Assembly: GCA_964550285.1 (NCBI GenBank)
Contig: CAZJYN010000004.1
Coordinates: 1,950-65,949 of the forward strand
Direction: 5' to 3'
Length of the DNA: 64,000 bases
Source of the DNA: an uncultured Rubrivirga sp.
GTDB lineage: Bacteria > Actinomycetota > Actinomycetes > S36-B12
Below are positions 3,463 to 31,568 of this stretch, one piece after another. The position numbers were made by a program, and so were the translations under genes. Each line of letters begins with the position of its first letter. Positions within the stretch are counted from its first letter, which is position 1. The notes beneath the pieces are model-generated. The model saw only the letters and a program-made list of their open reading frames with translations, did not search any database and was not told the DNA's origin.

Positions 3463-4374
3463 CTAGCTGTGCACCGTCAGGAACTGCTGGTCCACGACAC
3501 CGTCGTAGTAGAAGATCGCCCGACCCATCTCCGATTCGGTCCACGTGACCGGCGGTTCCTCCGGATCGACGTAGTAACCACCGGTGAAGGCTTCGTTGCG
3601 ATTACCCGCAGGGTCGAAGAAGTAGATGCAATGGCCGCGCGTGGCCCCGTGTCGCGTTGGATTCTTCTCGATCGGTACGCCGTGGTAAGCGAGGATGTCC
3701 GCGGTATCCCGTATGGCGGTCCAGTCATCGACCCAGAATGCGAAGTGGTGCAGGCCGCCGTCTTGGCCCGTCACCAGCGCGATGTCGTGCGAATGGTGCG
3801 AATGCTCTAGCCAGGTGGCTACTTGGAAGCCATCGTCACCGAGCACCTGTTCGGTGAGGTGGAAGTCGAGCACCTCCTGCAAGAACCGAGTGTTCGCGGC
3901 GACGTCCTCGCAGGTGATGAAGATGTGGTCAAGACGCGGTGGGGCGAAGCCGACGAGGTTGATCGGCTTGGGCGGCGGGTTGACCAGCGGTAGCAGGTTG
4001 CCCACCTGCTGCATGCCGTACACCAACTCCATAACGTGACCGCTGGGCAAGGAGAATCGAATGGCCTCGCCGTGTCCGGGCCCGATCTCCGCGGCGTCGA
4101 ATCGCATCACCTCGACACCGGCTTGTTCCAGCCTCGCGGTGTAGTGATCGAGATCCTCGCGGTAGCGGACCTTCCAGCCCATATGGTTCAGGCCGTAGGT
4201 CGACTCGCTGGTCAAGATCACCGAGTGGTGCTGGTGTTCATCCCAGCACTTCAGATAGACCCGGTCGGCCTCGCGAGCGGTCTCGTAGAGCCCGATGACC
4301 TCGGTGTAATAGGCCGTAGCCAATTCCAGGTCCGGAACGCGCACTTCCACGTGCGACAAACGCAAGATTCCCAT
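3463..4374 (-). CDS. catechol 2,3-dioxygenase (extradiol, two-domain VOC fold), copy 1
   Basis: 303 aa. LRLSHVEVRV N-terminus; candidate metal-ligand contexts PPRLDH, GGLHHFAFW, NRNEAFTGGY; C-terminal FLTVHS. Overall pattern matches XylE/DmpB-type enzymes. Confidence 0.9.
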   Translation of the reverse strand: MGILRLSHVEVRVPDLELATAYYTEVIGLYETAREADRVYLKCWDEHQHHSVILTSESTYGLNHMGWKVRYREDLDHYTARLEQAGVEVMRFDAAEIGPGHGEAIRFSLPSGHVMELVYGMQQVGNLLPLVNPPPKPINLVGFAPPRLDHIFITCEDVAANTRFLQEVLDFHLTEQVLGDDGFQVATWLEHSHHSHDIALVTGQDGGLHHFAFWVDDWTAIRDTADILAYHGVPIEKNPTRHGATRGHCIYFFDPAGNRNEAFTGGYYVDPEEPPVTWTESEMGRAIFYYDGVVDQQFLTVHS

Positions 4375-4389
4375 GTCTTGTCCGATCCC

Positions 4390-5298
4390 CTACGTGTGTA
4401 CCGTCATGAATCGGGTGTTGAGATCGCCTTCGTAGTAGAAGACGGCACGACCGATCTGGTCCTCAGTCCAGGTGATGGTCGGGAATTCCGGGTCCGGGCG
4501 ATAGCCCCCGGTGAAGACTTCGTTTCTGGTACCCAGCGGATCGAAGAAGTAGATCGTGTTTCCGCGGGTGATCCCGTGCCGAGTCGGACCGACATCGATC
4601 TGGATTCCGTTATAGGCGAGAACATCCGCGGAGCGACGTACGTGGTCCCAATCATCGAGCCACCACGCGAAGTGATGCAGGCCGCCGTTCTTGCCCGAGA
4701 CGATCGCGAGGTCGTGCGGACTGTCGGTCACCGTCATCCAGGTGGCGGCCTGGTGGCCCTGCCCATCCAGCAATTGTTCGGTAGTCCGAAAACCGAAGAC
4801 GTCCTCGTAGAACTTGGTCGAATCACCCACCTCTTCGGCGGTCACCAACAGGTGATCTAGGCGTGGTGGGGCGATACCGGTCAACCCCTCGACGAAGGGA
4901 GCGGGATTGATGGGCGCGGTCGCTCTGCCGACCATGTCCAAATCGGCGACGAGTTCCATCGTCTGCCCGGACGGGGTCTCGAACTGGATCGACTCCCCCT
5001 GCCCTATGCGATTCCCCTTGGAGATGCGGCGAACCGGGAACCCGTACTGCGAGACCCGATTTTCGAGTTCGTCGAGATCATCCTCACGGTCTACCTTGAA
5101 CGACATCAGGTCGAAGCCGACCCGCGGCCCGTATATCAACCGCAGCGAATGGTGGTTCGGCTCGTCCCAGCACTTGAGGTAGACCGAGTTCTCGTCCCGC
5201 TCAGTTTCGAGCAGGCCGATGACCTCGGTGTAGTACGCCGTGGCTAGGTCAAGGTCGGTGACCGTGACGTCAACGTGCGCCAGCCTTTGCAAACCCAT
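4390..5298 (-). CDS. catechol 2,3-dioxygenase (extradiol, two-domain VOC fold), copy 2
   Basis: 302 aa paralogue of the adjacent gene. It shares LATAYYTEVIGL, VYLKCWDE, PPRLDH, GGLHHFAWW and RNEVFTGGY. RBS GAGGGAG lies upstream of ATG 5298. Confidence 0.9.
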   Translation of the reverse strand: MGLQRLAHVDVTVTDLDLATAYYTEVIGLLETERDENSVYLKCWDEPNHHSLRLIYGPRVGFDLMSFKVDREDDLDELENRVSQYGFPVRRISKGNRIGQGESIQFETPSGQTMELVADLDMVGRATAPINPAPFVEGLTGIAPPRLDHLLVTAEEVGDSTKFYEDVFGFRTTEQLLDGQGHQAATWMTVTDSPHDLAIVSGKNGGLHHFAWWLDDWDHVRRSADVLAYNGIQIDVGPTRHGITRGNTIYFFDPLGTRNEVFTGGYRPDPEFPTITWTEDQIGRAVFYYEGDLNTRFMTVHT

Positions 5299-5317
5299 GG
5301 AATGTTCGCTCCCTCAC

Positions 5318-5335
5318 TTGTGTCACAGGACACAA
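5318..5335. promoter_or_regulatory. perfect 7-4-7 inverted repeat TTGTGTC-ACAG-GACACAA in the divergent control region (candidate IclR-type operator)
   Basis: Read directly from the sequence: TTGTGTCACAGGACACAA. It lies about 20 bp upstream of the start of dioxygenase copy 2 and about 100 bp upstream of the opposite operon, which encodes the IclR regulator. Confidence 0.35.
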
Positions 5336-5431
5336 CATCGATTGCGTGGAGCGTGACGGTAAGTGGAATGTGTCCCGCATGGAAGTACGTCGTCCCATCT
5401 ACAGGAACACCCGCTGCTAGCGTCCCGAAGC

Positions 5432-6097
5432 ATGGCAGCAGGTGCTCCCGAGCAGATGCGATCGGCGATGGCCGACTACATCCGTGCGGTGCATGAGGCC
5501 TACCTAGACGCCGCGGACCCCCTGCCACCGGCCGACCGCGCCCGACTACCGCTGTTCACCGACCGCCCGTTCACCGTGATCGCCGCAGGAACCCGTTACC
5601 TGCATGTCCTCGCGACGACCGACCCCTTGCCCGAACCCGTTGGCCAGGAGGTGCGCATCGAGGACAGCGCGAACGAACTGAACTGGAGTTTGCGCTTCTA
5701 CGACCCCGTCGTAGCGCCGGGGCTGGGACTGATCGACGAAGCCGATGCTCCGCAACCGACCCAGGTGCGCGACACCCTGGGAGTGCGAACTGTGCTTTAC
5801 CACCTGTCCGTGCCACCCGGTGGAGGGTTGACGGCTCATCACGCGCAGCACGCCGGAACCGGGCTGGCGCATTCGCACGCGGCAGCCGATCGTGATTTCA
5901 CCACGATGGCCGGATTGCAGCCCGCAAACGGGGAACTCATAGCCGAGATGCACGCTGCGCACGTCAACTCGATGCCGAATGCGCTGCGCCTGCTTGCAAA
6001 CGAACTCCTCGGTAAGCAAGCCATCGAGGCTTCGACCACCGACGTCGAATCGATCCGGCGGGCGGCACTGGAAGAACTCAGGTCAGCACAACGATGA
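5432..6097 (+). CDS. hypothetical protein (no family recognised), first gene of the lower-pathway operon
   Basis: ORF 5363..6097. I prefer ATG 5432 (MAAGAPEQMRSAMADYIRAVHEAY), but no clear RBS is visible, so the start is uncertain. Its stop overlaps the IclR start in an ATGA at 6094-6097. Contains a His-rich patch HHAQHAGTGLAHSH. Confidence 0.5.
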   Translation: MAAGAPEQMRSAMADYIRAVHEAYLDAADPLPPADRARLPLFTDRPFTVIAAGTRYLHVLATTDPLPEPVGQEVRIEDSANELNWSLRFYDPVVAPGLGLIDEADAPQPTQVRDTLGVRTVLYHLSVPPGGGLTAHHAQHAGTGLAHSHAAADRDFTTMAGLQPANGELIAEMHAAHVNSMPNALRLLANELLGKQAIEASTTDVESIRRAALEELRSAQR

Positions 6098-20730: not shown

Positions 20731-22722
20731 CTAGGACACCCAGAAGAAGCGCTGGTTGACACCAGGCGCGTAGCGAGCATCCGAAGTCGGCACCGTCGGG
20801 AGGTTGCTGACCTCGGGGAAGGTGAGCAGGTAGTCGTAGAGCGCCTGCTCGTAGCTGACCCCGAGTGTCATCTTGTCGCCGGCGCTTTCGAAGGTGCCGT
20901 AGTTGTCCCCTCCGGCGGCGGTGAAGGAGTTCGTCACCACATCCACACTCGGAGCTCCGGCTACCGGCGCACCACCGCTGACGAGTGCGGTCCCGTCGGC
21001 GAGTGAGATAGACCGAACGCGAGTGCCGGGCGTCGTCACCGGACCGGCGGACCGGTCACCCTCCGGGTTACCGACCTCCTGGGCGGTTCCCGAGCGTGCG
21101 CAGGTCACCTGCAACCCACTTATCTGCATGAACTGGCCGCCACCGCGCTCGGAGATCGCGCAGGAACGCTCGAATACCTCCTTCAACTGCGCCGCAGAGA
21201 GGTCGGGGATGACCGTCATGCGGTTATCGAATGGCAGCAGGTCGAAGGTCATTCCCCGACTTATCGCACCGGCCGTGCCGTCGGCGGGCAGGTTGTCGAT
21301 ACGGATCCCACCACCGTTCGTCATGGCGACGACTGGGTTCGAGGCGCTGGCGGCTTGGAGTCCGGCTTCCGCTCGGCGGGTGTTGTAAGCATTCATGAAG
21401 GCGTCGGCAACCAGGTTGCCACCGTTCGTCTCCTGGGTCCGAACACCCGGGTTTTCGGCATTCCCCCGGGCGGTGTTGAACACGATCCGAGAGGCCGCGA
21501 ACGGCTGATCCTGCTCCGCGAGGCACCCGTTCTCCAGCCGGGTCTCGACCGTACGGCGCAGCGTCGCGTTCGGCTTGACCGCATCCGTGACTCCGAGTGA
21601 AGCCGAAACATCGTCAGCGATCACGACTCGCCGCGGATAGGAGGTCTTCTCGTTCCACGACTTAAGTTCGCCGTTCTTATTGAAGGTCAAGTCGATCCGA
21701 CCGAGGTACTGGTAGTTCCCCGCGGTCGTGACGATCGGAACCTCGTTGCCGTTGCTGTCTTCGGTCAGGATCGGGTATTCGCCTTCCGCTTCGTCGCTAC
21801 CGGGCAGCAACTGCACGTACTCCGGGACGTTCGGGTTAGCCAGGGCTTCATCGCCGCCACCTGCGACGGCTACATCGACACCCTCGAGTAGCCCCACCAA
21901 CTCCTTGTCGAATTCCGAGCTCTGCAGGTGGCTGACCAGGATGATCTTGTTGACACCGTCATCTTCGAGCTTGTCGATTTGGCGCTGGACGACCCTGGAC
22001 ACCGCACGGATATTCGGTGTGGTGACCTCCGTCGGCAACGGAGACGAGATGGACTGCAGGATCGGCGTTATCGCCGCGACGATGCCGAACTTCTCGCCGG
22101 TGCGTGGATCCTCGTAGATCATCGCCTGCCCGAGCACCTCGTTATCCCGCGGCGTTTCCTCGATGATCCCGCCGGGAGCCACCAGATCCTTCAGGTTGGG
22201 GTCGTCGCTGTAGTCGAGATTCGCCGATAGGAACGGCTGGGTCACCTTCCCGTTGGTGCCGAACGCGTCGATATAGCGCCGCAGGAAGCCGGTGCCGTAG
22301 TCGAATTCGTGGTTGCCGAGCGAGTGAGCGTCGTACCCGATTCGCTTTTGCGCCATCGCATCCCACACCCGAGCATCGGAATCGGGATTGGACGGGTCGG
22401 AGCAGATAAGTACGCGACTAGCCAGGAAGGAATCTCCGGCGTAGACCATCAGCACACTGTTGTCATCGACGCCCCTCGCACGCCTCTTTTCACGATCAGC
22501 CACCGCCTTGAAAGCGGCGATGCTGCCCGCCTCGTAGGTAACGTCACCAACTGATTCCTCCTGAGGCAGGAGCTTGGACTCACCGTCGTTGTTGTGCAGC
22601 AAGGTGAGGGTCACATCCGACGAGGCTGCGCTTCCCGGGGCGACTGCGAGCAAAGAAGTGACGATGCCGACGGCTCCGGCTATGGCGACGGCGCGATACA
22701 GGCGTATAGATGAAAGGTTCAT
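20731..22722 (-). CDS. secreted bifunctional metallophosphoesterase / 5'-nucleotidase (UshA-like)
   Basis: Signal peptide. LLHNNDGES and GNHEFDYG calcineurin-like motifs, plus a C-terminal 5'-nucleotidase domain (GGIRID, NGGNLVADA). Confidence 0.85.
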   Translation of the reverse strand: MNLSSIRLYRAVAIAGAVGIVTSLLAVAPGSAASSDVTLTLLHNNDGESKLLPQEESVGDVTYEAGSIAAFKAVADREKRRARGVDDNSVLMVYAGDSFLASRVLICSDPSNPDSDARVWDAMAQKRIGYDAHSLGNHEFDYGTGFLRRYIDAFGTNGKVTQPFLSANLDYSDDPNLKDLVAPGGIIEETPRDNEVLGQAMIYEDPRTGEKFGIVAAITPILQSISSPLPTEVTTPNIRAVSRVVQRQIDKLEDDGVNKIILVSHLQSSEFDKELVGLLEGVDVAVAGGGDEALANPNVPEYVQLLPGSDEAEGEYPILTEDSNGNEVPIVTTAGNYQYLGRIDLTFNKNGELKSWNEKTSYPRRVVIADDVSASLGVTDAVKPNATLRRTVETRLENGCLAEQDQPFAASRIVFNTARGNAENPGVRTQETNGGNLVADAFMNAYNTRRAEAGLQAASASNPVVAMTNGGGIRIDNLPADGTAGAISRGMTFDLLPFDNRMTVIPDLSAAQLKEVFERSCAISERGGGQFMQISGLQVTCARSGTAQEVGNPEGDRSAGPVTTPGTRVRSISLADGTALVSGGAPVAGAPSVDVVTNSFTAAGGDNYGTFESAGDKMTLGVSYEQALYDYLLTFPEVSNLPTVPTSDARYAPGVNQRFFWVS

Positions 22723-22809: not shown

Positions 22810-23742
22810 TCAAACCGTCGAATCGGTTTCCCGGCGGGCATCCTCTTGCTCTTCGCTCATGCCAAGCCGACGTTCGGCCAGCAAGAGTAAGACGACGACG
22901 GCCACCCCCGCGAGGATCATCAGGCCAGCAGATGGGAAATCCGATGCTGGCGCCAAGAGGTTGCGATCATCGTCCTGCCACGGCCACAGCGCACGCAGCG
23001 AACCGATCATCAATCCAGTGAGCACCGCCAGCGTGATTCCGGCTCGATGCACGAGCAGCCACTTGAGCAACGTCACGAACGCACCCAAACCGACGATGGC
23101 ACCGATGGCGAAGGCGGCTAGGTACACGAGATCTCGATCATTCACCGCATCGAGCGTTGGCTCGTACATCCCAAGCGAGAGCAGGAAGAAGGACCCGGAG
23201 ACTCCCGGCAGCACGAGTGCGCAGATCGCGACCGCCGCCGCGAGCATCACGATGATCGGGCTCGGATCAGCGACAGTCCCCGGCGGCAAACCGGTCAGGA
23301 AGAACAAGACCACGGCGGCGATACCCGCCGCGAGTAAGTAACCCGGCTTCCAACCGCCGCCACGATGGACCATGTGTGCCGGGACCCAAATTCCAGCGAG
23401 CACGAGCCCGAAGAAAAGCGCCAGCATTTGCACCGGGTGGTCTTCGAGAAGCGGCTCGATCACCCGGGCCCCGAGCACTACGGCGATGGCCATACCGATT
23501 CCAACGGGGATCAAGAGCCGCCACGGCAAGCCGGCGAGAGTGCGCGTGAATCGGCGGCCGGACGGACCCCCGTCGGCGAGGCCTACGAGTTGTCGGAAGG
23601 CGAGCACGGCATCGGCGATCGCATCGATGGCCGTCCGATAGATCCCGACGATCAGCGCGATGGTTCCACCGCTGACTCCGGGGATGACCTCGGCGACTCC
23701 GATGAGCGCGCCGCGGACGAGATTCGCGATCAGCCGGAGCAC
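22810..23742 (-). CDS. DUF368 family membrane protein
   Basis: VIPGVSGGTIALIVGIY near the N-terminus and a second LPGVSGSFFLL repeat. ~8 TM segments. Confidence 0.75.
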   Translation of the reverse strand: MLRLIANLVRGALIGVAEVIPGVSGGTIALIVGIYRTAIDAIADAVLAFRQLVGLADGGPSGRRFTRTLAGLPWRLLIPVGIGMAIAVVLGARVIEPLLEDHPVQMLALFFGLVLAGIWVPAHMVHRGGGWKPGYLLAAGIAAVVLFFLTGLPPGTVADPSPIIVMLAAAVAICALVLPGVSGSFFLLSLGMYEPTLDAVNDRDLVYLAAFAIGAIVGLGAFVTLLKWLLVHRAGITLAVLTGLMIGSLRALWPWQDDDRNLLAPASDFPSAGLMILAGVAVVVLLLLAERRLGMSEEQEDARRETDSTV

Positions 23743-24380: not shown

Positions 24381-24773
24381 TTAGGTCAGGCAGCCGATCT
24401 CGTACAACTCTTCGGGAATCTCCGCGTTGGAGGGGTAGCCGCCGTCTTCGAAGGTCCCGCACGCATCTGCTTGCGTTCGCGGTACCCAGAACTGTCCCTC
24501 GGCCTCGAAGATGAAGGCGGTGGGGGCACCCTGCCCGGATCCATCGCCAAGGATGCCGCTGGTGACGGCCCAGCCATCGGCGCATTCCACGTTCTCGATC
24601 TCGTAGTCGTTGGCACCCTCGCCGAGGGTTGCGGCGTACTCCTCAGCGGCACCGCCAACAACCTCCAAGGTGCACTCGGCCATCCCACCGACCATCTCGT
24701 CATCGCTGCTCGAGCAACCGGTTATGGCGCCAATCAGCAGAACGGACGAGCCAACCGCTAGTGCTGCACGCAT
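24381..24773 (-). CDS. small lipoprotein, unknown function
   Basis: MRAALAVGSSVLLIGAITGCSSS is a signal peptide with a lipobox Cys. Acidic mature part with 4 Cys. Confidence 0.6.
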   Translation of the reverse strand: MRAALAVGSSVLLIGAITGCSSSDDEMVGGMAECTLEVVGGAAEEYAATLGEGANDYEIENVECADGWAVTSGILGDGSGQGAPTAFIFEAEGQFWVPRTQADACGTFEDGGYPSNAEIPEELYEIGCLT

Positions 24774-24864: not shown

Positions 24865-27375
24865 GTGGTGAACCGTCGTCAGCGCATGCTCGCTGCGTTC
24901 GCTGCGTTCGCGTTCGCCGGATCCATCGGCACCTTCGCATCGAGTACACCCGTTGCCTGGGCTGCTGAAGCCCCGCAACCGCTCACGATCACCGGCGGAC
25001 CGACCAGCGCCAGCGATGCTTCGCCGGTGCGAATCGATGCCGACCTCTATCTCCCCTCCGAAACGCCAGCACCGGCCGTCGTCCTGGCACACGGCTTCGG
25101 GGGATCCAAGGAATCGGTTGCCGAGGAAGCCGAGTACCTGGTCGATCGGGGATTCGTCGTCCTTGCCTATACGGCTCGTGGCTTCGGGGAGTCAACGGGA
25201 ATGATCTCGATGAACGCACCGGACTTCGAAATCGCCGACGCCGCATCGATCATCGACTATCTCGCCGAGCAAGACGCCGTCGCACAAGATGCACCCGAGG
25301 ACCCCCGCGTCGGATTCGCCGGTGGCTCCTACGGCGGAGCGCTGTCCTTGATGATCGCCGGATACGACGAACGCGTAGACGCCATCAGTGCTGACATCAC
25401 CTGGAACGATCTCCAGACATCCCTGTTCGGTCAATCGGTGCAAAGCACCCCGATCAGCGACCAGACCGGGGTCTTCAAGCAGTTGTGGAGCGGCCTTTTC
25501 TTCAGTGCCGGACTTATCGATGATGGTGGCCAGGTCACGGACTGCGGACGATTTGCGCCCAACTGGTGCGCGGCATACTCCACTGCCGCCGCCGAGGGAG
25601 TCTTGACCGATCAAGCGCGTGAATTGATGGCTGCCTCATCTCCAGCGAGCATTACCGAGCGCATCACCATCCCCACCCTGCTCGGCGGCGGGCAATCGGA
25701 TTCACTCTTCCCGCTGGCGCAGACCAGCGCTAACGCCGAGCAGATCTCGGCTGCCAACGACGACGTCAAGGTCGTATGGCACTCCGGCGGCCACGACGGT
25801 GGCGTGGACGAAAGCGATCGACTGCGGGAGTTGAACGCCGAATGGTTCTCCTTCCACTTAGCCGATGGACCTGAGGTCACCAACGACTTCGAGGCCACGC
25901 TGGTGGAAGGTTCCGCGTTCGGTGGACAGGGAACCACCGATACCGAATTGCTGAGCAGTGATTCGTTCCCCGGCCTGTTCGGCGCTTCGCAGGAGACGAT
26001 CGCCATTGATGGGACGACCCAACAGGTCTTGGCACCGGCCGGCGGGGTACCCGCTGCTATCTCATCGCTACCCGGTGCCGGTGGCCTCGCGGGTCTTGCC
26101 GGCGATCTGCTCGCCCTGCCCTTGCCGAACCAGACAGCGACATTCACCTCCGAGCCGCTGACCGAGCCGTTGCGCGTCATCGGCGCCTCCCAAGTACAAC
26201 TCGAGATCAGCAGTGCGCGGCCAGTCGAGGACGTCGCCCTCTTCGCGAGCTTGCGCATCATCGGCGGCACCCAAAGACCGATACTCCCGAACGGATTGGT
26301 GGCCCCTATTCGAATCGACGAAGTCGGGCCAACCCCGCAGACGATCGACGTGGAGTTGCCCGCGATCGTGCGCGACGTCGCTGCCGGTGAACGGGTGAGC
26401 GTGGTTATCGGCACGACCGATCAGGCGTTTCGCATGCCACCTGGTCCAGCCGTGTACTCGATCGGACTCGCCGGGACATCCGTGCTGATCCCGCTGAATC
26501 CCATGACCGAGGAATCCGGCGGTACGCCGCTGTGGCGTTGGCCGTTGATCGCCCTGGTGAGCGTGATCGTGATCGCGATAGCCGTCCGAATGCTGCGCCC
26601 GGGGGGCACGCGCGCAACCTCCCGCGAGGACCTTGCCGATACACCGATCGCAGTGGAAGGACTTTCCAAGCAGTTCAGGGGCGGGGTCCACGCCGTCAGC
26701 GAGGTCTCCTTCGACGTACCCAAGGGTGTCGTGCTCGGTCTCCTCGGACCCAACGGCGCCGGCAAGACGACCACGATGCGGATGGTCATGGGGCTCATCT
26801 ATCCCACCGGGGGAAACGCATACGTCTTCGGACAACCCGTCTTCCCCGGGGCAGCCACGTTGGCACACATCGGATCCTTCATCGAGGGTCCGGGGTTCTT
26901 GCCACACCTGTCCGGGCGCGAGAACCTGCGGCTGTACTGGAAGGCAAGTGGCCGCGAACAGCTCGACGCCCATCTCGACTACGTCCTCGAGATCGCCGGC
27001 CTCGGCACGGCAATCGACCGCAAGGTGCGCACTTACAGCCAGGGCATGCGCCAGCGGCTGGGAATCGCCCAGGCGATGCTCGGTATGCCCGATGTCCTCG
27101 TGCTGGACGAACCCACCAATGGGCTGGATCCGCCGCAGATCCGGGAGATGCGCCAAGTGCTGCAGGACTACGCCGCCACGGGGCGAACCGTCGTGATCTC
27201 CTCGCATCTACTCAGCGAGGTCGAGCAAACCTGCTCGCATGTAGTCGTCATGCATCACGGAACGCTCATAGCCCAAGGGACCGTGGCCGAACTCCTCGCC
27301 GGGCGCAGCGGCGCACGCCTTGAGGACGTCTTCATGGAAATCGTCGGCGAGGGCCATGAGGTGGTGACGTCATGA
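24865..27375 (+). CDS. fusion protein: exported alpha/beta serine hydrolase (CocE/NonD, S15-like) - single TM helix - ABC transporter ATP-binding domain
   Basis: Signal peptide (AFAFAGSIGTFASSTPVAWA). Hydrolase motifs VLAHGFGGSK and nucleophile elbow GGSYGG. TM segment LWRWPLIALVSVIVIAIAV (about aa 556-577). The NBD has Walker A GPNGAGKTT, signature YSQGMRQR, Walker B VLVLDEPTNGLD and H-loop SSHLL. Confidence 0.8.
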   Translation: MVNRRQRMLAAFAAFAFAGSIGTFASSTPVAWAAEAPQPLTITGGPTSASDASPVRIDADLYLPSETPAPAVVLAHGFGGSKESVAEEAEYLVDRGFVVLAYTARGFGESTGMISMNAPDFEIADAASIIDYLAEQDAVAQDAPEDPRVGFAGGSYGGALSLMIAGYDERVDAISADITWNDLQTSLFGQSVQSTPISDQTGVFKQLWSGLFFSAGLIDDGGQVTDCGRFAPNWCAAYSTAAAEGVLTDQARELMAASSPASITERITIPTLLGGGQSDSLFPLAQTSANAEQISAANDDVKVVWHSGGHDGGVDESDRLRELNAEWFSFHLADGPEVTNDFEATLVEGSAFGGQGTTDTELLSSDSFPGLFGASQETIAIDGTTQQVLAPAGGVPAAISSLPGAGGLAGLAGDLLALPLPNQTATFTSEPLTEPLRVIGASQVQLEISSARPVEDVALFASLRIIGGTQRPILPNGLVAPIRIDEVGPTPQTIDVELPAIVRDVAAGERVSVVIGTTDQAFRMPPGPAVYSIGLAGTSVLIPLNPMTEESGGTPLWRWPLIALVSVIVIAIAVRMLRPGGTRATSREDLADTPIAVEGLSKQFRGGVHAVSEVSFDVPKGVVLGLLGPNGAGKTTTMRMVMGLIYPTGGNAYVFGQPVFPGAATLAHIGSFIEGPGFLPHLSGRENLRLYWKASGREQLDAHLDYVLEIAGLGTAIDRKVRTYSQGMRQRLGIAQAMLGMPDVLVLDEPTNGLDPPQIREMRQVLQDYAATGRTVVISSHLLSEVEQTCSHVVVMHHGTLIAQGTVAELLAGRSGARLEDVFMEIVGEGHEVVTS

Positions 27376-28247
27376 GTGCCCCTACCCTCGACTACTCGCG
27401 CAAGGACACGCTTGGCATCGGCGTCGAGCTAGTCCGCCAGATCAAGCGACGACGCACCCTGGTTGCCTTCCTACTCGTCGTCGCCCTCCCACTGATCGTC
27501 GTCGCAGCCGTCAGGTTCGGACCTTCATCCGACGGTGGCGATGGTGGCAATCAGGGAGGCGGGTTCGGCGACGGCAACTTCGATCTCGTCGGCCTGGCAA
27601 CAAGCGGTGCCTGGAATTTCGCCGTCACGATGCTGCTGTTCTCCTCCGGGTTCTTGCTGGTCATCATCGCGGCGATGTTCCTCGGTGACACCGTTGCAAG
27701 CGAAGCGAGTTGGTCCACCCTTCGATACCTCCTCGTTGCGCCGGTTCCCCGACGCAAACTGCTTCGCACCAAGGCGATCGTGGGCCTGTTGCTGACGGTG
27801 ATCGTCTTGGTGACCTTGGTGGTCACCTCATGGGCGATCGGTGCGATCGCGTTCGGTACGCAGCCACTTGCCAGCCCATTCGGTGGGGCGCTGACGCAGG
27901 CTGAATCGGCTCAACGCCTGGTCGTCATCACCACCTACATCGCCATAACGTTGCTGTTCCCAGCATCGATTGCGTTCTTGATGAGCGTGTTGACCGACGT
28001 CCCACTCGGCGCGGTCGGAACGGCGGTGGTGGTCGTCATCATCTTCAACATCCTCGACGCAATCGAGGCCCTCGGCTCCTTGCGACGATTCCTGCCCTCG
28101 GATTACGGATCGACGTGGGTGGACGCCCTGAACCCGGTCATCGTCTGGGATCAAATGGCAGTGGGCGTCGCCTACAACCTGATCGCCTTCGCTCTCCTCA
28201 TGGGGATCGCGGTACTTCGATTCGACCGCAAGGACATCACTTCTTGA
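27372..28247 (+). CDS. ABC-2 type transporter permease
   Basis: 291 aa, 6 hydrophobic segments. ATGA overlap with the upstream ATPase fusion gene. Confidence 0.75.
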   Translation: MSAPTLDYSRKDTLGIGVELVRQIKRRRTLVAFLLVVALPLIVVAAVRFGPSSDGGDGGNQGGGFGDGNFDLVGLATSGAWNFAVTMLLFSSGFLLVIIAAMFLGDTVASEASWSTLRYLLVAPVPRRKLLRTKAIVGLLLTVIVLVTLVVTSWAIGAIAFGTQPLASPFGGALTQAESAQRLVVITTYIAITLLFPASIAFLMSVLTDVPLGAVGTAVVVVIIFNILDAIEALGSLRRFLPSDYGSTWVDALNPVIVWDQMAVGVAYNLIAFALLMGIAVLRFDRKDITS

Positions 28248-28494: not shown

Positions 28495-29358
28495 CTACGA
28501 GGCGGAAAGCGCCGATCGCCTGCCGCACACCTCACGGACGACCGAGACCAGGTCGTCATCGGCCTTCGTGACAGCCGTGGGGGCACGATGCAAATCGACC
28601 GTTACCGGGGCAAGGGCGGGCAGATCGAAGACCTCGTCGATCTCGACCATGCCCGTTGGAATCGATCGCCGGGACTTCACTGCAACGGCCAGCCCGGCTG
28701 CGACGGTGGCATTCACCGCTGCAGCGCTATCGCTTACATAGCGGACCGTCCAATCGATGCCGGCGCGTGCGAGAGCGTCGATCGCATGGGCGCGATGGAT
28801 GCAACCTTCCGGATTGGCTGCGATGGGAAGGGCCGAACCGCGATCCCAGTGCATATCCGGATGGGCGATCCACACCAGATCCTCGATGTCGATCGTCTCT
28901 CCTGCTGGCGTGTCCGTGTGCCGGATGGTCAGTGCTACGTCGAGCAAACCGTCTGCCAACTTTTGTGCAAGCACCGAGGAAACCGAGCAGTCGATCTGGA
29001 CACCTACCTGTGGGTGCAAGGACATGAAGCGCCGCAGGATCTCAGGCAGGAACTGGTCGGCCTGCTCGGTGGTGATACCCAAGCGCAGTGCCGGCCGGTT
29101 GCCCTCGCCGCTGACCAAGGAGCTCGCGGTGTCGCTGAGATTGAGTAGGCGTCGCGCGTAGGGCAACAAGGTGATCCCGGCATCGGTTAGCACCACGCTG
29201 CGAGTCGTCCGGTCGAACAGACGCACGCCGAGGTCTCGTTCCAACTTGGAGATCTGTGCGCTGACAGCGGACTGAGTCAAGTTGAGCATCTGCGCGGCGG
29301 AGGAGAATCCGTGGGTCTCCGCGACCGCGACGAAGGTCGACAACTGCTGCAACTCCAC
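28495..29358 (-). CDS. LysR-family transcriptional regulator
   Basis: MELQQLSTFVAVAETHGFSSAAQMLNLTQSAVSAQISKLERDLG is the canonical LysR HTH. It is followed by a LysR substrate-binding domain. Divergent from the enzyme cluster. Confidence 0.9.
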   Translation of the reverse strand: MELQQLSTFVAVAETHGFSSAAQMLNLTQSAVSAQISKLERDLGVRLFDRTTRSVVLTDAGITLLPYARRLLNLSDTASSLVSGEGNRPALRLGITTEQADQFLPEILRRFMSLHPQVGVQIDCSVSSVLAQKLADGLLDVALTIRHTDTPAGETIDIEDLVWIAHPDMHWDRGSALPIAANPEGCIHRAHAIDALARAGIDWTVRYVSDSAAAVNATVAAGLAVAVKSRRSIPTGMVEIDEVFDLPALAPVTVDLHRAPTAVTKADDDLVSVVREVCGRRSALSAS

Positions 29359-29463
29359 ACCGCCAATTTACAACTATTCGCGATAGGTTCAACCACAAAT
29401 ATTCGTTTCTCTTTTCAGTGGATTCCTCCTACCGTCGGTCGGGACGTCCACGAGAGGAGATCC

Positions 29464-30294
29464 ATGAGTGTCATCGACCTCGTCCGCTACCCCATCGATC
29501 GACCCGGCCCGGCCCGCGATGCACTGATCGCTGAGTGCCGCCGGCAACTCACCGAGACCGGGTGCGTGGTGCTGGAGGGATTCGTCACCTCAGCTGCGCT
29601 GACCTCGATGAACGCCGAAGGGCGTGAACTCGCTCCGCAGGCCCACTTCAACACCACGCAAACCAATTGCTACAGCAGCGCCGATGATCCATCGCTTCCC
29701 GAGGGCCACCCCAAGCGGGTCTTCATGGAGCGAACCAACGGGTTCGTGGCCGGCGATCTCATCGGACCAGGCACCGCGGTTCGCGGACTGTACGAAAGCG
29801 AAGCCCTCCGCATGTTCGTAGCCGCCTGCATGGATGTGGACGAGATCTACGACTACGGCGACCCTCTTGGGCACCTCGTCTTCAATGTCCTGCGTCCAGG
29901 CACCCAGCATCCGTGGCACTTCGACAACAACGATTTCATCGTTACCTTGCTGACCCAGAAAGCCGACGCAGGTGGGAAGTTCGAATACTGTCCCCGGATA
30001 CGTTCGAAGCAGGACGAGAACATCGGATCGGTTGCAGCGACCCTTGCTGGCGACGACACCCTCGTGCACAGGTTGGATCCCGATCCTGGCTCGCTGCAGA
30101 TCTTCTACGGGCGGCACTCCTTGCACCGGGTCACGAGGATCGAAGGAGACCGCGAGCGGCACACGCTCATCCTGGGCTATTCCGATACCCCGGGTGAGAT
30201 CGCCGATGCCGAGCGGACCAAGCGGCTCTTCGGCAGGGCAACACCAGAGCACGAACGTGCTGCCCGCGAAGGCCGCGAGCGAGTGTCGGTGTAA
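29464..30294 (+). CDS. Fe(II)/2-oxoglutarate-dependent oxygenase-like protein
   Basis: ORF 29311..30294 trimmed to ATG 29464 (RBS GAGAGGAGA). HPWHFDNND supplies an HxD facial-triad candidate, and GRHSLHRVT supplies the distal His plus Arg. Family assignment made by eye only. Confidence 0.55.
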   Translation: MSVIDLVRYPIDRPGPARDALIAECRRQLTETGCVVLEGFVTSAALTSMNAEGRELAPQAHFNTTQTNCYSSADDPSLPEGHPKRVFMERTNGFVAGDLIGPGTAVRGLYESEALRMFVAACMDVDEIYDYGDPLGHLVFNVLRPGTQHPWHFDNNDFIVTLLTQKADAGGKFEYCPRIRSKQDENIGSVAATLAGDDTLVHRLDPDPGSLQIFYGRHSLHRVTRIEGDRERHTLILGYSDTPGEIADAERTKRLFGRATPEHERAAREGRERVSV

Positions 30295-30296
30295 CG

Positions 30297-31568
30297 ATGC
30301 TGCAACCCATCGAACCGGAGGCCTTGACCGATCTGGAAACCCCGAGCGCTGGCGCCGATGTCACGGGGGTGACCGATAGCTTGCCGCCCGGCTTCGACCC
30401 GGTGCGTATGCGCGCTGACCGACTAGCGCGGGTCAGAGCGATGATGCGCGATCAAGACCTCGCGGCCGTCATCCTCTTCGATCCCTACAACCAGCGTTAC
30501 GCCACGGGATCGCGCAACATGTTCGGGTACTTCCTGCGCAATTCGACTCGATACATCTACGTACCCCTCGAGGGCGATGTCATCTTGTTCGAGTATCCAG
30601 GATCCGCGCACGTTTCGACCTGGCTCGAGACCATCGACGATAACCGCACCTCGCAGGTGGTGTGGTCCGCAGTCAACAGTAAGGACACCGCAGTCGCCCG
30701 GCCCTTCGCCGAGGAGATTGCTGCCCTGGTGCGGGCCGATGGACGCGGTAGCAACCGCGTTGGGTTGGATCGATGCGGGCATTTGCACGCACTCGCACTG
30801 GAGGAGGCCGGTCTTCAGGTCATGGACGTGATGGGCGATCTCCTGTACACACGTCGCCTCAAGACGCCGGATGAGATCGCGTGCCTGCGCCTATCCATGG
30901 CCACGACCGAAGCCGCGATGGCCGCCGTCGAACGCAGCATTCGACCGGGCATCACTGAGAACGAACTCTTCGGTGTGTTCTATGGCGAAGTGATCAGCCG
31001 AGGAGGGGAGTTCGTCGAGACTCGCCTGCTGAGTTCAGGGCCACGCACCGAACCCTGGTTCAACGAAGCAAGCGAACGCAGTATCCGTCATGGTGATCTG
31101 ATCGCCTTCGATACCGACACCATCGGAAACAACGGCTACTACTCCGATTTCTCGCGCACGTTCCAGGTGGGGCCCGGTCGGCCGACGGGATACCAACGCA
31201 CCCTCTACGGCATGGCCTACGAGCAGGTCCAACACAACATCGCCCAACTCCGGCCGGGGATGACCTACCGTGAACTGGCCGAGAAGGCCTGGCCTATCCC
31301 CGAGCGCTACTACGACCGCCGCTACCCATCCATCATCCATGGAGTGGGGATGCACGGGGAGACTCCGCTCGTCGCGCATTACGGGGACTTCGACCGATTT
31401 TCCACCGACGACGTTCTCGAACCCGGCATGGTGGTCTCGGTGGAGAGCTACATCGCGGAAGTCGGCGGCGGTGAGGGGATCAAGCTCGAAGAGGAGGTCC
31501 TCATCACGGCTGAAGGCGTCGAGTTGATCTCCAAATATCCATTCGACGAGCGTCTCCTGGGGTCCTGA
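30297..31568 (+). CDS. M24-family metallohydrolase (creatinase/prolidase/ectoine-hydrolase-like)
   Basis: 423 aa. Creatinase-like N-domain followed by a pita-bread domain (KTPDEIACLR, DLIAFDTD, IHGVGMHGE, VVSVESY, IKLEEEVLIT). Confidence 0.8.
   Translation: MLQPIEPEALTDLETPSAGADVTGVTDSLPPGFDPVRMRADRLARVRAMMRDQDLAAVILFDPYNQRYATGSRNMFGYFLRNSTRYIYVPLEGDVILFEYPGSAHVSTWLETIDDNRTSQVVWSAVNSKDTAVARPFAEEIAALVRADGRGSNRVGLDRCGHLHALALEEAGLQVMDVMGDLLYTRRLKTPDEIACLRLSMATTEAAMAAVERSIRPGITENELFGVFYGEVISRGGEFVETRLLSSGPRTEPWFNEASERSIRHGDLIAFDTDTIGNNGYYSDFSRTFQVGPGRPTGYQRTLYGMAYEQVQHNIAQLRPGMTYRELAEKAWPIPERYYDRRYPSIIHGVGMHGETPLVAHYGDFDRFSTDDVLEPGMVVSVESYIAEVGGGEGIKLEEEVLITAEGVELISKYPFDERLLGS

Follow-up and report, generated by a model that had tools for sequence, protein, structure and literature searches.

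A predicted extracellular serine hydrolase joined through one transmembrane helix to an ABC ATPase in actinobacteria

As a rule, an ATP-binding cassette (ABC) ATPase is either a soluble subunit or fused to a membrane domain of its own. The locus described here raises the question of what such an ATPase does when it is preceded, in the same polypeptide, by a stop-transfer helix and a predicted ecto-enzyme of about 520 residues. This unusual and evolutionarily stable architecture lies in a 64,000-nucleotide stretch of contig CAZJYN010000004.1 (positions 1,950 to 65,949, forward strand), from an uncultured Rubrivirga sp. placed by GTDB in the Actinomycetota. We call the whole stretch the window, and nucleotide coordinates refer to it. 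The fusion gene (24865..27375, + strand) encodes 836 aa, and its partner (27372..28247, +) encodes a 291-aa ABC-2 permease. In one polypeptide, an extracellular catalytic activity would thus be physically linked to a cytoplasmic energy source.

The 836-aa protein contains, in order, a signal peptide, a CocE/NonD (S15)-type hydrolase, a PepX_C beta-sandwich, one transmembrane helix and a complete ABC ATPase. Three Pfam domains scored above their cut-offs: Peptidase_S15 (residues 55-310, 76.4 bits, cut-off 23), PepX_C (residues 423-522, 30.2 bits, cut-off 22.5) and ABC_tran (PF00005; residues 612-752, 93.8 bits, cut-off 25). The hydropathy profile has an N-terminal hydrophobic segment at residues 8-26, followed by AWA|AE, and one strong internal transmembrane segment, followed by RMLRPGGTR. 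In the AlphaFold2 (AF2) model, which has a predicted local distance difference test score (pLDDT) of 82.3, the alpha/beta hydrolase is followed by a beta-sandwich and then by a helix at 558-577, from which a linker of about 17 residues leads to a canonical nucleotide-binding domain (NBD).

On these data we delimited the parts of the gene as follows, all on the + strand. The predicted Sec-type signal peptide (residues 1-33, 24865..24963) has an RRQR n-region, the hydrophobic core and a cleavage-like site at AWA|AE. The catalytic domain, Peptidase_S15/CocE-NonD-like, covers residues 55-335 (25027..25869) according to Pfam, conservation and fold matches. The PepX_C-like beta-sandwich covers residues 336-550 (25870..26514), judged from Pfam and from the secondary structure and pLDDT of the model. 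The stop-transfer helix, with Kyte-Doolittle values up to 2.4 and a basic cluster next to it, spans residues 556-578 (26530..26598). A short cytoplasmic linker (residues 579-594, 26599..26646) leads to the NBD (residues 595-836, 26647..27372), which is defined by Pfam, NCBIfam profiles, PDB sequence matches and motif conservation. GGSYGG lies at residues 153-158, GPNGAGKT at 628-635, YSQGMRQR at 724-731 and VLVLDEPTNGLD at 744-755. The start codon is ambiguous (GTG 24865, GTG 24868 or ATG 24886); an identical database protein, P0001, has 829 aa, which fits a start at ATG 24886. We read the junction with the permease gene directly in the sequence, and it is an ATGA overlap. An earlier note on this DNA, made by a model from the letters alone, had put forward the domain order, an outside hydrolase with an inside ATPase, the nucleophile elbow, Walker A, signature and VLVLDEPTNGLD motifs, the helix and the ATGA overlap. 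All of these were borne out, the topology through the evidence given below.

The same note had raised the possibility that a frameshift created the fusion, and the distribution of fused and split versions bears on this. A word-indexed protein search gave more than 120 clusters at 62-100% identity to the window protein, all with the same Pfam architecture and about 820-830 aa long. The names on the close clusters are only "alpha/beta fold hydrolase [Ca. Nanopelagicales]" and "ABC-2 type transport system ATP-binding protein". An exhaustive search with the hydrolase and transmembrane helix as query gave 324 clusters at 50% identity with E < 1e-30, and the best 150 of them include about 40 full-length fused proteins (signal, hydrolase, transmembrane helix, NBD) at 35-55% identity. 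An N-terminal hydrophobic segment is present in nearly all full-length homologues.

A genome collection was also scanned for the fusion by its NBD motifs. Species-representative genomes among the matches listed belong to Streptomyces (three), Lentzea, Amycolatopsis and an uncultured actinomycete, and in these loci a homologous permease (43-45% identity) lies directly downstream. In the RefSeq genome of Tsukamurella tyrosinosolvens NCTC13231 the fusion is WP_232066410.1, annotated "alpha/beta fold hydrolase", and it overlaps a gene annotated "ABC transporter permease". A homologous permease gene comes after the fusion in each of the 11 other related loci that were examined. The 4-bp overlap was present in all four junctions checked (the window and loci L081, L082 and L086). 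The fusion is kept across at least four actinobacterial orders, and the module is widespread in uncultured Nanopelagicales-like freshwater lineages.

No genuine split, that is a hydrolase-transmembrane gene followed by an NBD gene, was found among the candidate split entries and loci examined. The apparent split forms P0129, P0217, P0140, P0149 and P0214 are hydrolase-transmembrane proteins whose tails are the NBD read out of frame, and P0131 in L083 (about 3880-4070) is a fused gene broken by a single frameshift. That a sequencing or assembly frameshift fused two genes is therefore exceedingly improbable: only the opposite was seen, frameshifts splitting the gene in some metagenome assemblies, and hundreds of independent assemblies as well as isolate genomes carry the fusion intact. 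We rejected the artefact, and the hydrolase-transmembrane-NBD fusion is a real, conserved architecture. Counts of fused and split forms need a caveat: frameshifts in metagenome and Logan assemblies often break the fused gene and so yield false stand-alone hydrolase-transmembrane proteins. One transmembrane-anchored relative (P0145 in L085) has no ABC neighbour; the stretch available for L084 is too short to tell.

We then compared the ectodomain with known hydrolases. Its key residues are His76-Gly77 (an HG oxyanion motif), Ser155 in GGSYGG (nt 25327-25329), Asp279 (25699-25701) and His310 (25792-25794). Across 41 divergent fusions the triad is conserved at 100% (S155), 100% (D279) and 98% (H310), and the HG motif is kept. 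The only two cysteines of the ectodomain, Cys227 (nt 25543-25545) and Cys235 (nt 25567-25569), are 100% conserved in the same set. Stand-alone hydrolase relatives keep the same triad and the same cysteine pair. In fold, the ectodomain comes closest to PaL lipase (8yzn/8yzo; E 1.7e-29, TM-score 0.71, 21% identity), with CocE next; CocE, PepX and alpha-amino acid ester hydrolase (AEH) matched at E 1e-20 to 1e-24. A published account of PaL lipase was not found in the literature searched.

The CocE/NonD (S15) hydrolases, which include CocE, AEH, PepX and PaL lipase, have a common two-domain fold of an alpha/beta hydrolase and a PepX_C beta-sandwich and a common triad order, Ser-Asp-His. The fusion hydrolase matches both the S15 and the PepX_C Pfam models above threshold. 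However, it is only 14-21% identical to these enzymes, uses the HG-type oxyanion motif, and adds a signal peptide, the invariant disulfide-like cysteine pair, a C-terminal transmembrane helix and an ATPase. The NCBIfam model CocE_NonD (TIGR00976) gave 63.5 bits, narrowly under its cut-off of 66.3. The ectodomain is best described, on sequence, as a divergent S15-like clade, and it is predicted to be active as an esterase, lipase or peptidase with a Ser-Asp-His triad and the CocE/NonD (S15) fold.

One loop, PAGGVPAAISSLPGAG (residues 391-406, nt 26035-26082), lies inside the PepX_C-like domain and has an AF2 pLDDT below 50. Its PxGGxP…LPG motif is 90-100% conserved in the fused forms and partly kept in the stand-alone forms. 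The loop could be a lid or a substrate-binding segment. A role as a fusion-specific interface was not supported, since the loop is partly conserved in stand-alone relatives too.

On which side of the membrane does each part lie? An Arg cluster directly follows the transmembrane helix in 41/41 divergent fusions, in agreement with the positive-inside rule. The invariant cysteine pair is of a kind typical for proteins that actinobacteria export. The stand-alone relatives P0219, P0238 and P0253 end in a sortase signal (LPATG, a transmembrane segment and RRRR), and other stand-alone relatives have a plain C-terminal helix as anchor. The window protein has no LPXTG motif before its transmembrane helix, where it reads ...LNPMTEESGGTPLW. 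An outside location of the hydrolase is indicated because its stand-alone relatives carry LPXTG sortase signals. Together with the signal-like N-terminus, the Arg cluster and the cysteine pair, this supports a topology with the hydrolase outside and the ATPase in the cytoplasm. In a neighbour-joining tree the sortase-type and secreted forms make up one clade and the fused forms the remainder. The tree fits one or a few old fusion events, with a rooting that should not be over-read.

The Tsukamurella protein WP_232066410.1 (L086 4911-7286) has an annotated N-terminus, ILLAAFAACGLGG…, with a likeness to a lipobox. Besides its transmembrane tether, the ectodomain of this mycolic-acid bacterium might carry a lipid modification. 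The annotated start of WP_232066410.1 may also be too far downstream.

The ATPase has all motifs of an active NBD. Walker A lies at 26746-26769, the signature at 27034-27057, Walker B with the catalytic Glu at 27094-27111, the D-loop at 27118-27129 and His781 at 27205-27207. GPNGAGKT, YSQGMRQR, VLVLDE, NGLD and H781 are 98-100% conserved in the fusions, and the catalytic residues K634, E749 and H781 are found in 98%, 100% and 100% of the 41. The Q-loop position is occupied by Glu674 (26884-26886) instead of the canonical Gln in 100% of the fusions. Glu also stands there in 76/80 related NBDs of all kinds, and this residue is best read as a subfamily trait and not a defect. Since the hydrolase triad and the ATPase motifs are both conserved, both enzymes are under selection for activity.

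By its sequence matches, the NBD is assigned to the ABCA/DrrA/NosF class. Its best solved relatives are TM0544, NosF (37-38% identity), TM_1403 and Rv1218c. Sequence matches in the PDB include ABCA, NosF (E 3e-42) and Rv1218c, with ABCA NBDs scoring above NosF. The NCBIfam matches are all below their own cut-offs; the top one is the lantibiotic-protection ATPase TIGR03740 (1.5e-54, 185.1 bits, cut-off 309.75), DrrA is next, and the FtsE model TIGR02673 reached 95.9 bits (cut-off 264.85). In many of the longer homologues the NBD is followed by about 60-100 further residues, which include a weakly hydrophobic segment.

The permease matched ABC2_membrane_2 (PF12679; 34.4 bits, cut-off 27.2) and ABC2_membrane_4 (PF12730; 29.3 bits, cut-off 27). 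It gave no NCBIfam match at E <= 0.01, and no sequence relative was found in the PDB. Hydropathy and AF2 agree on about six transmembrane helices and an N-terminal amphipathic helix. Its AF2 model is poor (pLDDT 57.6), and the extracellular loops and the docking surface are unreadable from it. The best fold match of this low-confidence model is a weak one, to NosY (7o0y_D; E 0.1, probability 0.98, TM-score 0.41-0.49), followed by ABCG proteins.

Is the covalent link a tether or a transmitter? We calculated the identity to the window residue over the 41 divergent fusions. It was 0.19 for the stretch before the transmembrane helix, 0.21 for the helix and 0.27 for the cytoplasmic linker, compared with 0.64 for the NBD. 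All 41 have a hydrophobic helix of about 20 residues and an R-rich cluster, whereas the helix sequence itself is unconserved. The linker from the end of the helix to residue 597 varies from 17 to 101 low-complexity residues among homologues. On the outer side, the last ectodomain strand ends at 550 and the helix starts at 558 in the AF2 model, about 7 residues apart. Given the low conservation of the helix and linkers and the wide range of linker lengths, the link looks like a tether and not like a force transmitter. We infer that it mainly enforces proximity and a 1:1 stoichiometry. The part in coupling that the earlier note implied for the covalent link is weakened accordingly.

The unfused relatives offer a clue to how such a machine may work. 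The closest unfused ATPase-permease pairs are 46-51% (NBD) and 25-35% (permease) identical to the window proteins, and occur in Kribbella, Nonomuraea, Pseudarthrobacter, Arthrobacter, Sinomonas, Tessaracoccus, Streptomyces and several metagenome-assembled genomes. At least 13 unfused modules have, ending at the NBD start or overlapping it, a homologous gene for a LolA/DUF2092/MucB-like ectoprotein of about 400 aa with an N-terminal anchor. These conserved, apparently uncharacterised modules of LolA-like ectoprotein, ATPase and permease, present in many Actinomycetota, are at about 4900-6010 in loci L006-L010, L013, L014, L016, L024, L028-L030, L039 and L050. The ectoprotein gene thus stands directly upstream of, or overlaps, the ATPase gene, as the hydrolase part precedes the NBD here. 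Unlike the hydrolase, the partner is LolA/MucB-like, N-terminally anchored and a separate polypeptide, and the modules have no hydrolase. A functional study of these three-gene modules was not found in the literature searched, which left many subscription papers outside it.

A similar arrangement is known from NosDFY, which acts in nitrous oxide reductase maturation (PDB 7o0y, 7osf, 7qba). The gene order nosD-nosF-nosY is ectoprotein, ATPase and permease (PMC8457098). NosD is a periplasmic partner held on NosFY and relays copper from NosL to NosZ (PMC8457098; bioRxiv 10.64898/2025.12.16.694761). The two systems have a like gene order and PF12679 in common, NosF is among the best structural and sequence matches of the window NBD, NosY is the best permease fold match, if a weak one, and in NosDFY the ABC part serves an extracytoplasmic partner. 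However, NosD is a beta-helix copper carrier, whereas here an alpha/beta serine hydrolase takes the partner's place, and its covalent link to the ATPase by way of a transmembrane helix would force a 2:2:2 stoichiometry. NosF (308 aa) also has a C-terminal extension that the window NBD lacks. Neither nosZ nor nosL was found among the Pfam-scanned neighbours of the fusion, and the NBD matched no Nos-specific model. By its defining features, a hydrolase as partner and neighbours that are not nos genes, the system is not a NosDFY. Because the LolA-like genes and nosD both lie directly upstream of the ATPase gene, this position appears to be a recurrent slot for an extracytoplasmic partner. By analogy, the fusion system would resemble most, in its working, the NosDFY-type ABC-2 systems with an ecto-partner.

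Two other known systems were compared. FtsEX, with PcsB, CwlO, EnvC or RipC, has the concept in common: a cytoplasmic ABC ATPase is linked to the control of an extracytoplasmic hydrolase. However, FtsX belongs to the type VII permeases and has a large extracellular domain, whereas the permease here matches ABC-2 families only, and the hydrolase of FtsEX is a separate, non-covalently bound peptidoglycan hydrolase. With an ABC-2 permease and an FtsE score far below the cut-off, membership of the FtsEX or MacB families was rejected. Thus, of the likeness to mechanotransmission systems drawn by the earlier note, the idea of an ABC machine energising an extracytoplasmic partner is apt, given the identity to NosF, and the assignment to an FtsEX/MacB type did not hold. 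TCDB family 3.A.1.145 (Myxococcus Q1D520) is a 13-transmembrane-segment ABC-2 permease with a C-terminal M1 zinc aminopeptidase and an uncharacterised function (PMC3924187). It is likewise an ABC-2 system covalently fused to a hydrolytic enzyme, but here an N-terminal S15 serine hydrolase is attached, across one helix, to the ATPase and not to the permease, and we rejected the family as a match. No description of the hydrolase-transmembrane-NBD architecture was found in the same literature and databases annotate it only generically, in line with the earlier statement that no functional account was known.

Taken together, the comparison points to a type-V (ABC-2) machine, presumably (hydrolase-TM-NBD)2(permease)2, where TM is the transmembrane helix. 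The hydrolase would sit on the outer face of the cytoplasmic membrane, with one stop-transfer helix tethering it to the cytoplasmic ATPase. The ABC-2 clade would function together with a partner outside the cytoplasm, whose coding sequence lies just upstream of that of the ATPase. In the sister clade this partner would be LolA-like, in the distant NosDFY system it is NosD, and here it would be an enzyme. In the present clade the enzyme in this slot would have become covalently attached to the ATPase. The ATP cycle would act through the permease, delivering substrate to the enzyme or gating it. In the form we favour, the substrate would be an amphiphilic ester or amide, which the permease would extract or expel from membrane or cytoplasm and hand to the hydrolase lying on top of it. 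We favour such a substrate because the sister-clade partners have a lipid-carrier fold and the ectodomain best matches a deposited lipase; by this analogy, extraction or export followed by cleavage is weakly supported. We put the chances of an ABC-2 machine whose partner slot is filled by a tethered enzyme, with substrate delivered to it for cleavage, at about even.

Several points weigh against this model. The lipase analogy consists of 21% identity and a name given by the depositor. The LolA-like fold assignment of the sister-clade ectoprotein comes from modest Pfam and NCBIfam scores. The low-confidence permease model gives no readable interface with the ectodomain, and no fusion-specific interface element was identified in the ectodomain, loop 391-406 being partly common to the stand-alone relatives. 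Across the related loci examined, no neighbourhood is conserved beyond the two genes, and this gives no substrate clue. The substrate, the direction of transport and the mode of coupling are proposals drawn from comparison and analogy. The wider claim is more tentative. An ATP-driven extract-and-cleave device, whose permease would draw a lipidic or envelope-bound ester or amide from the membrane for the tethered hydrolase, or an ATP-gated ecto-hydrolase may form a new functional class of ABC machine, and the fusion may reveal a partner-dependent ABC-2 clade that includes the LolA-like modules and does not consist of simple exporters; we regard this as possible but rather doubtful.

In an alternative that follows the lead of the earlier note, nothing would be transported, and the ATP cycle of NBD and permease would switch the hydrolase allosterically on and off, in the manner of FtsEX with cell-wall hydrolases or of NosFY with NosD. 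NosF and NosY are the closest solved relatives, the sister clade too has an ectoprotein partner, and the ectodomain comes within a few residues of the membrane (strand end 550, helix start 558). We consider such pure mechanotransmission unlikely. With an unconserved helix and linkers and a variable linker length, force through the covalent link is implausible, and the switch would need putative contacts with the permease. Stand-alone relatives with the same triad work without any ATPase, no autoinhibitory element was identified, and the system is not a member of the FtsEX or MacB family. A role in immunity or detoxification has a different basis. LanF proteins characteristically carry Glu at the Q-loop position. 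A LanFEG/BcrAB-like ABC-2 pump would clear the outer leaflet of a membrane-active antibiotic, be it a peptide, lipopeptide or ester, which the tethered hydrolase would inactivate. This fits the ranking of TIGR03740 and DrrA at the top of the NCBIfam matches of the NBD, the PF12730 match of the permease and the Glu at the Q-loop position. But this Glu, present in 76/80 related NBDs, does not discriminate, and we rejected it as a LanF-specific marker. The TIGR03740 score is far below its cut-off (185.1 versus 309.75 bits) and no NCBIfam lantibiotic permease model was matched, so the system does not belong to LanFEG. Among the neighbours there is no two-component sensor, biosynthetic cluster or resistance context, and the wide spread in uncultured Nanopelagicales-like freshwater lineages fits a housekeeping role better. 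We therefore give the immunity role a low probability.

A further alternative is co-anchoring, in which helix and ATPase merely replace the sortase or transmembrane anchor of a surface exoenzyme, with no functional coupling. The unconserved, flexible helix and linkers would be expected, the relatives are indeed anchored by LPXTG signals or a plain C-terminal helix, and at least one transmembrane-anchored relative, P0145, has no ABC neighbour. However, an anchor has no need of a 240-residue ATPase. The fusion is kept in at least four orders with both catalytic sites intact and always with a cognate permease, genuine split versions were not found and the apparent ones are frameshifts, and the sister clade keeps an ectoprotein in the same slot. 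Accordingly, we also give co-anchoring a low probability. The tethered enzyme in a partner slot remains our preferred reading, and the architecture probably shows how a group of ABC-2 transporters works with a partner outside the cell.

The fusion is thus real, widespread, annotated only generically and functionally unexplored in the literature searched. It offers a handle on how ABC-2 (type V) systems cooperate with extracytoplasmic partners, NosD and, by inference, the LolA-like proteins. Its hosts include abundant actinobacteria of fresh water as well as the cultivable Streptomyces, Amycolatopsis and Tsukamurella, which makes it experimentally tractable. Should its substrate prove to be a lipid of the envelope or a membrane-active compound, the system would be relevant to resistance or to remodelling of the actinobacterial envelope.

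We also scanned the surroundings of the fusion. A promoter and terminator scan at the locus was uninformative. The Pfam-scanned neighbours are DUF368, a 5'-nucleotidase-like protein, LysR, a HalD-like protein and an M24 peptidase. Immediately upstream and divergent, a 130-aa open reading frame (24381-24773, - strand) has a lipobox-like N-terminus, …LLIGAITGC, and no Pfam match. About 1.1 kb upstream, on the opposite strand, lies a VCA0040-like/DUF368 gene (22810-23742, -) that is undecaprenyl-phosphate translocase-like (1.1e-69). The DUF368 gene and a 185-aa gene are syntenic with the fusion only in the close relative L081; DUF368 does not show this synteny in L082 or in the Streptomyces, Lentzea and Amycolatopsis loci. 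Further upstream, a 663-aa protein (20731-22722, -) with a signal peptide and a 5'-nucleotidase C-terminal domain is likely to be a secreted nucleotidase or phosphoesterase.

On the other side of the module, a HalD/WelO5-like open reading frame (29461-30294, +; Fe/2-oxoglutarate halogenase-like, 1.3e-11) is flanked by a divergent LysR regulator gene (28495-29358, -) and an M24/creatinase-type peptidase gene (30297-31568, +). These three genes may form a small amino-acid-modifying cluster. In other genomes, a VWA/YfbK_C gene directly follows the permease gene in the two Streptomyces loci scanned (L002 9503-11245 and L003 9804-11558), and a GH59 glycosidase gene follows it in one metagenome-assembled genome (L001 9624-11888).

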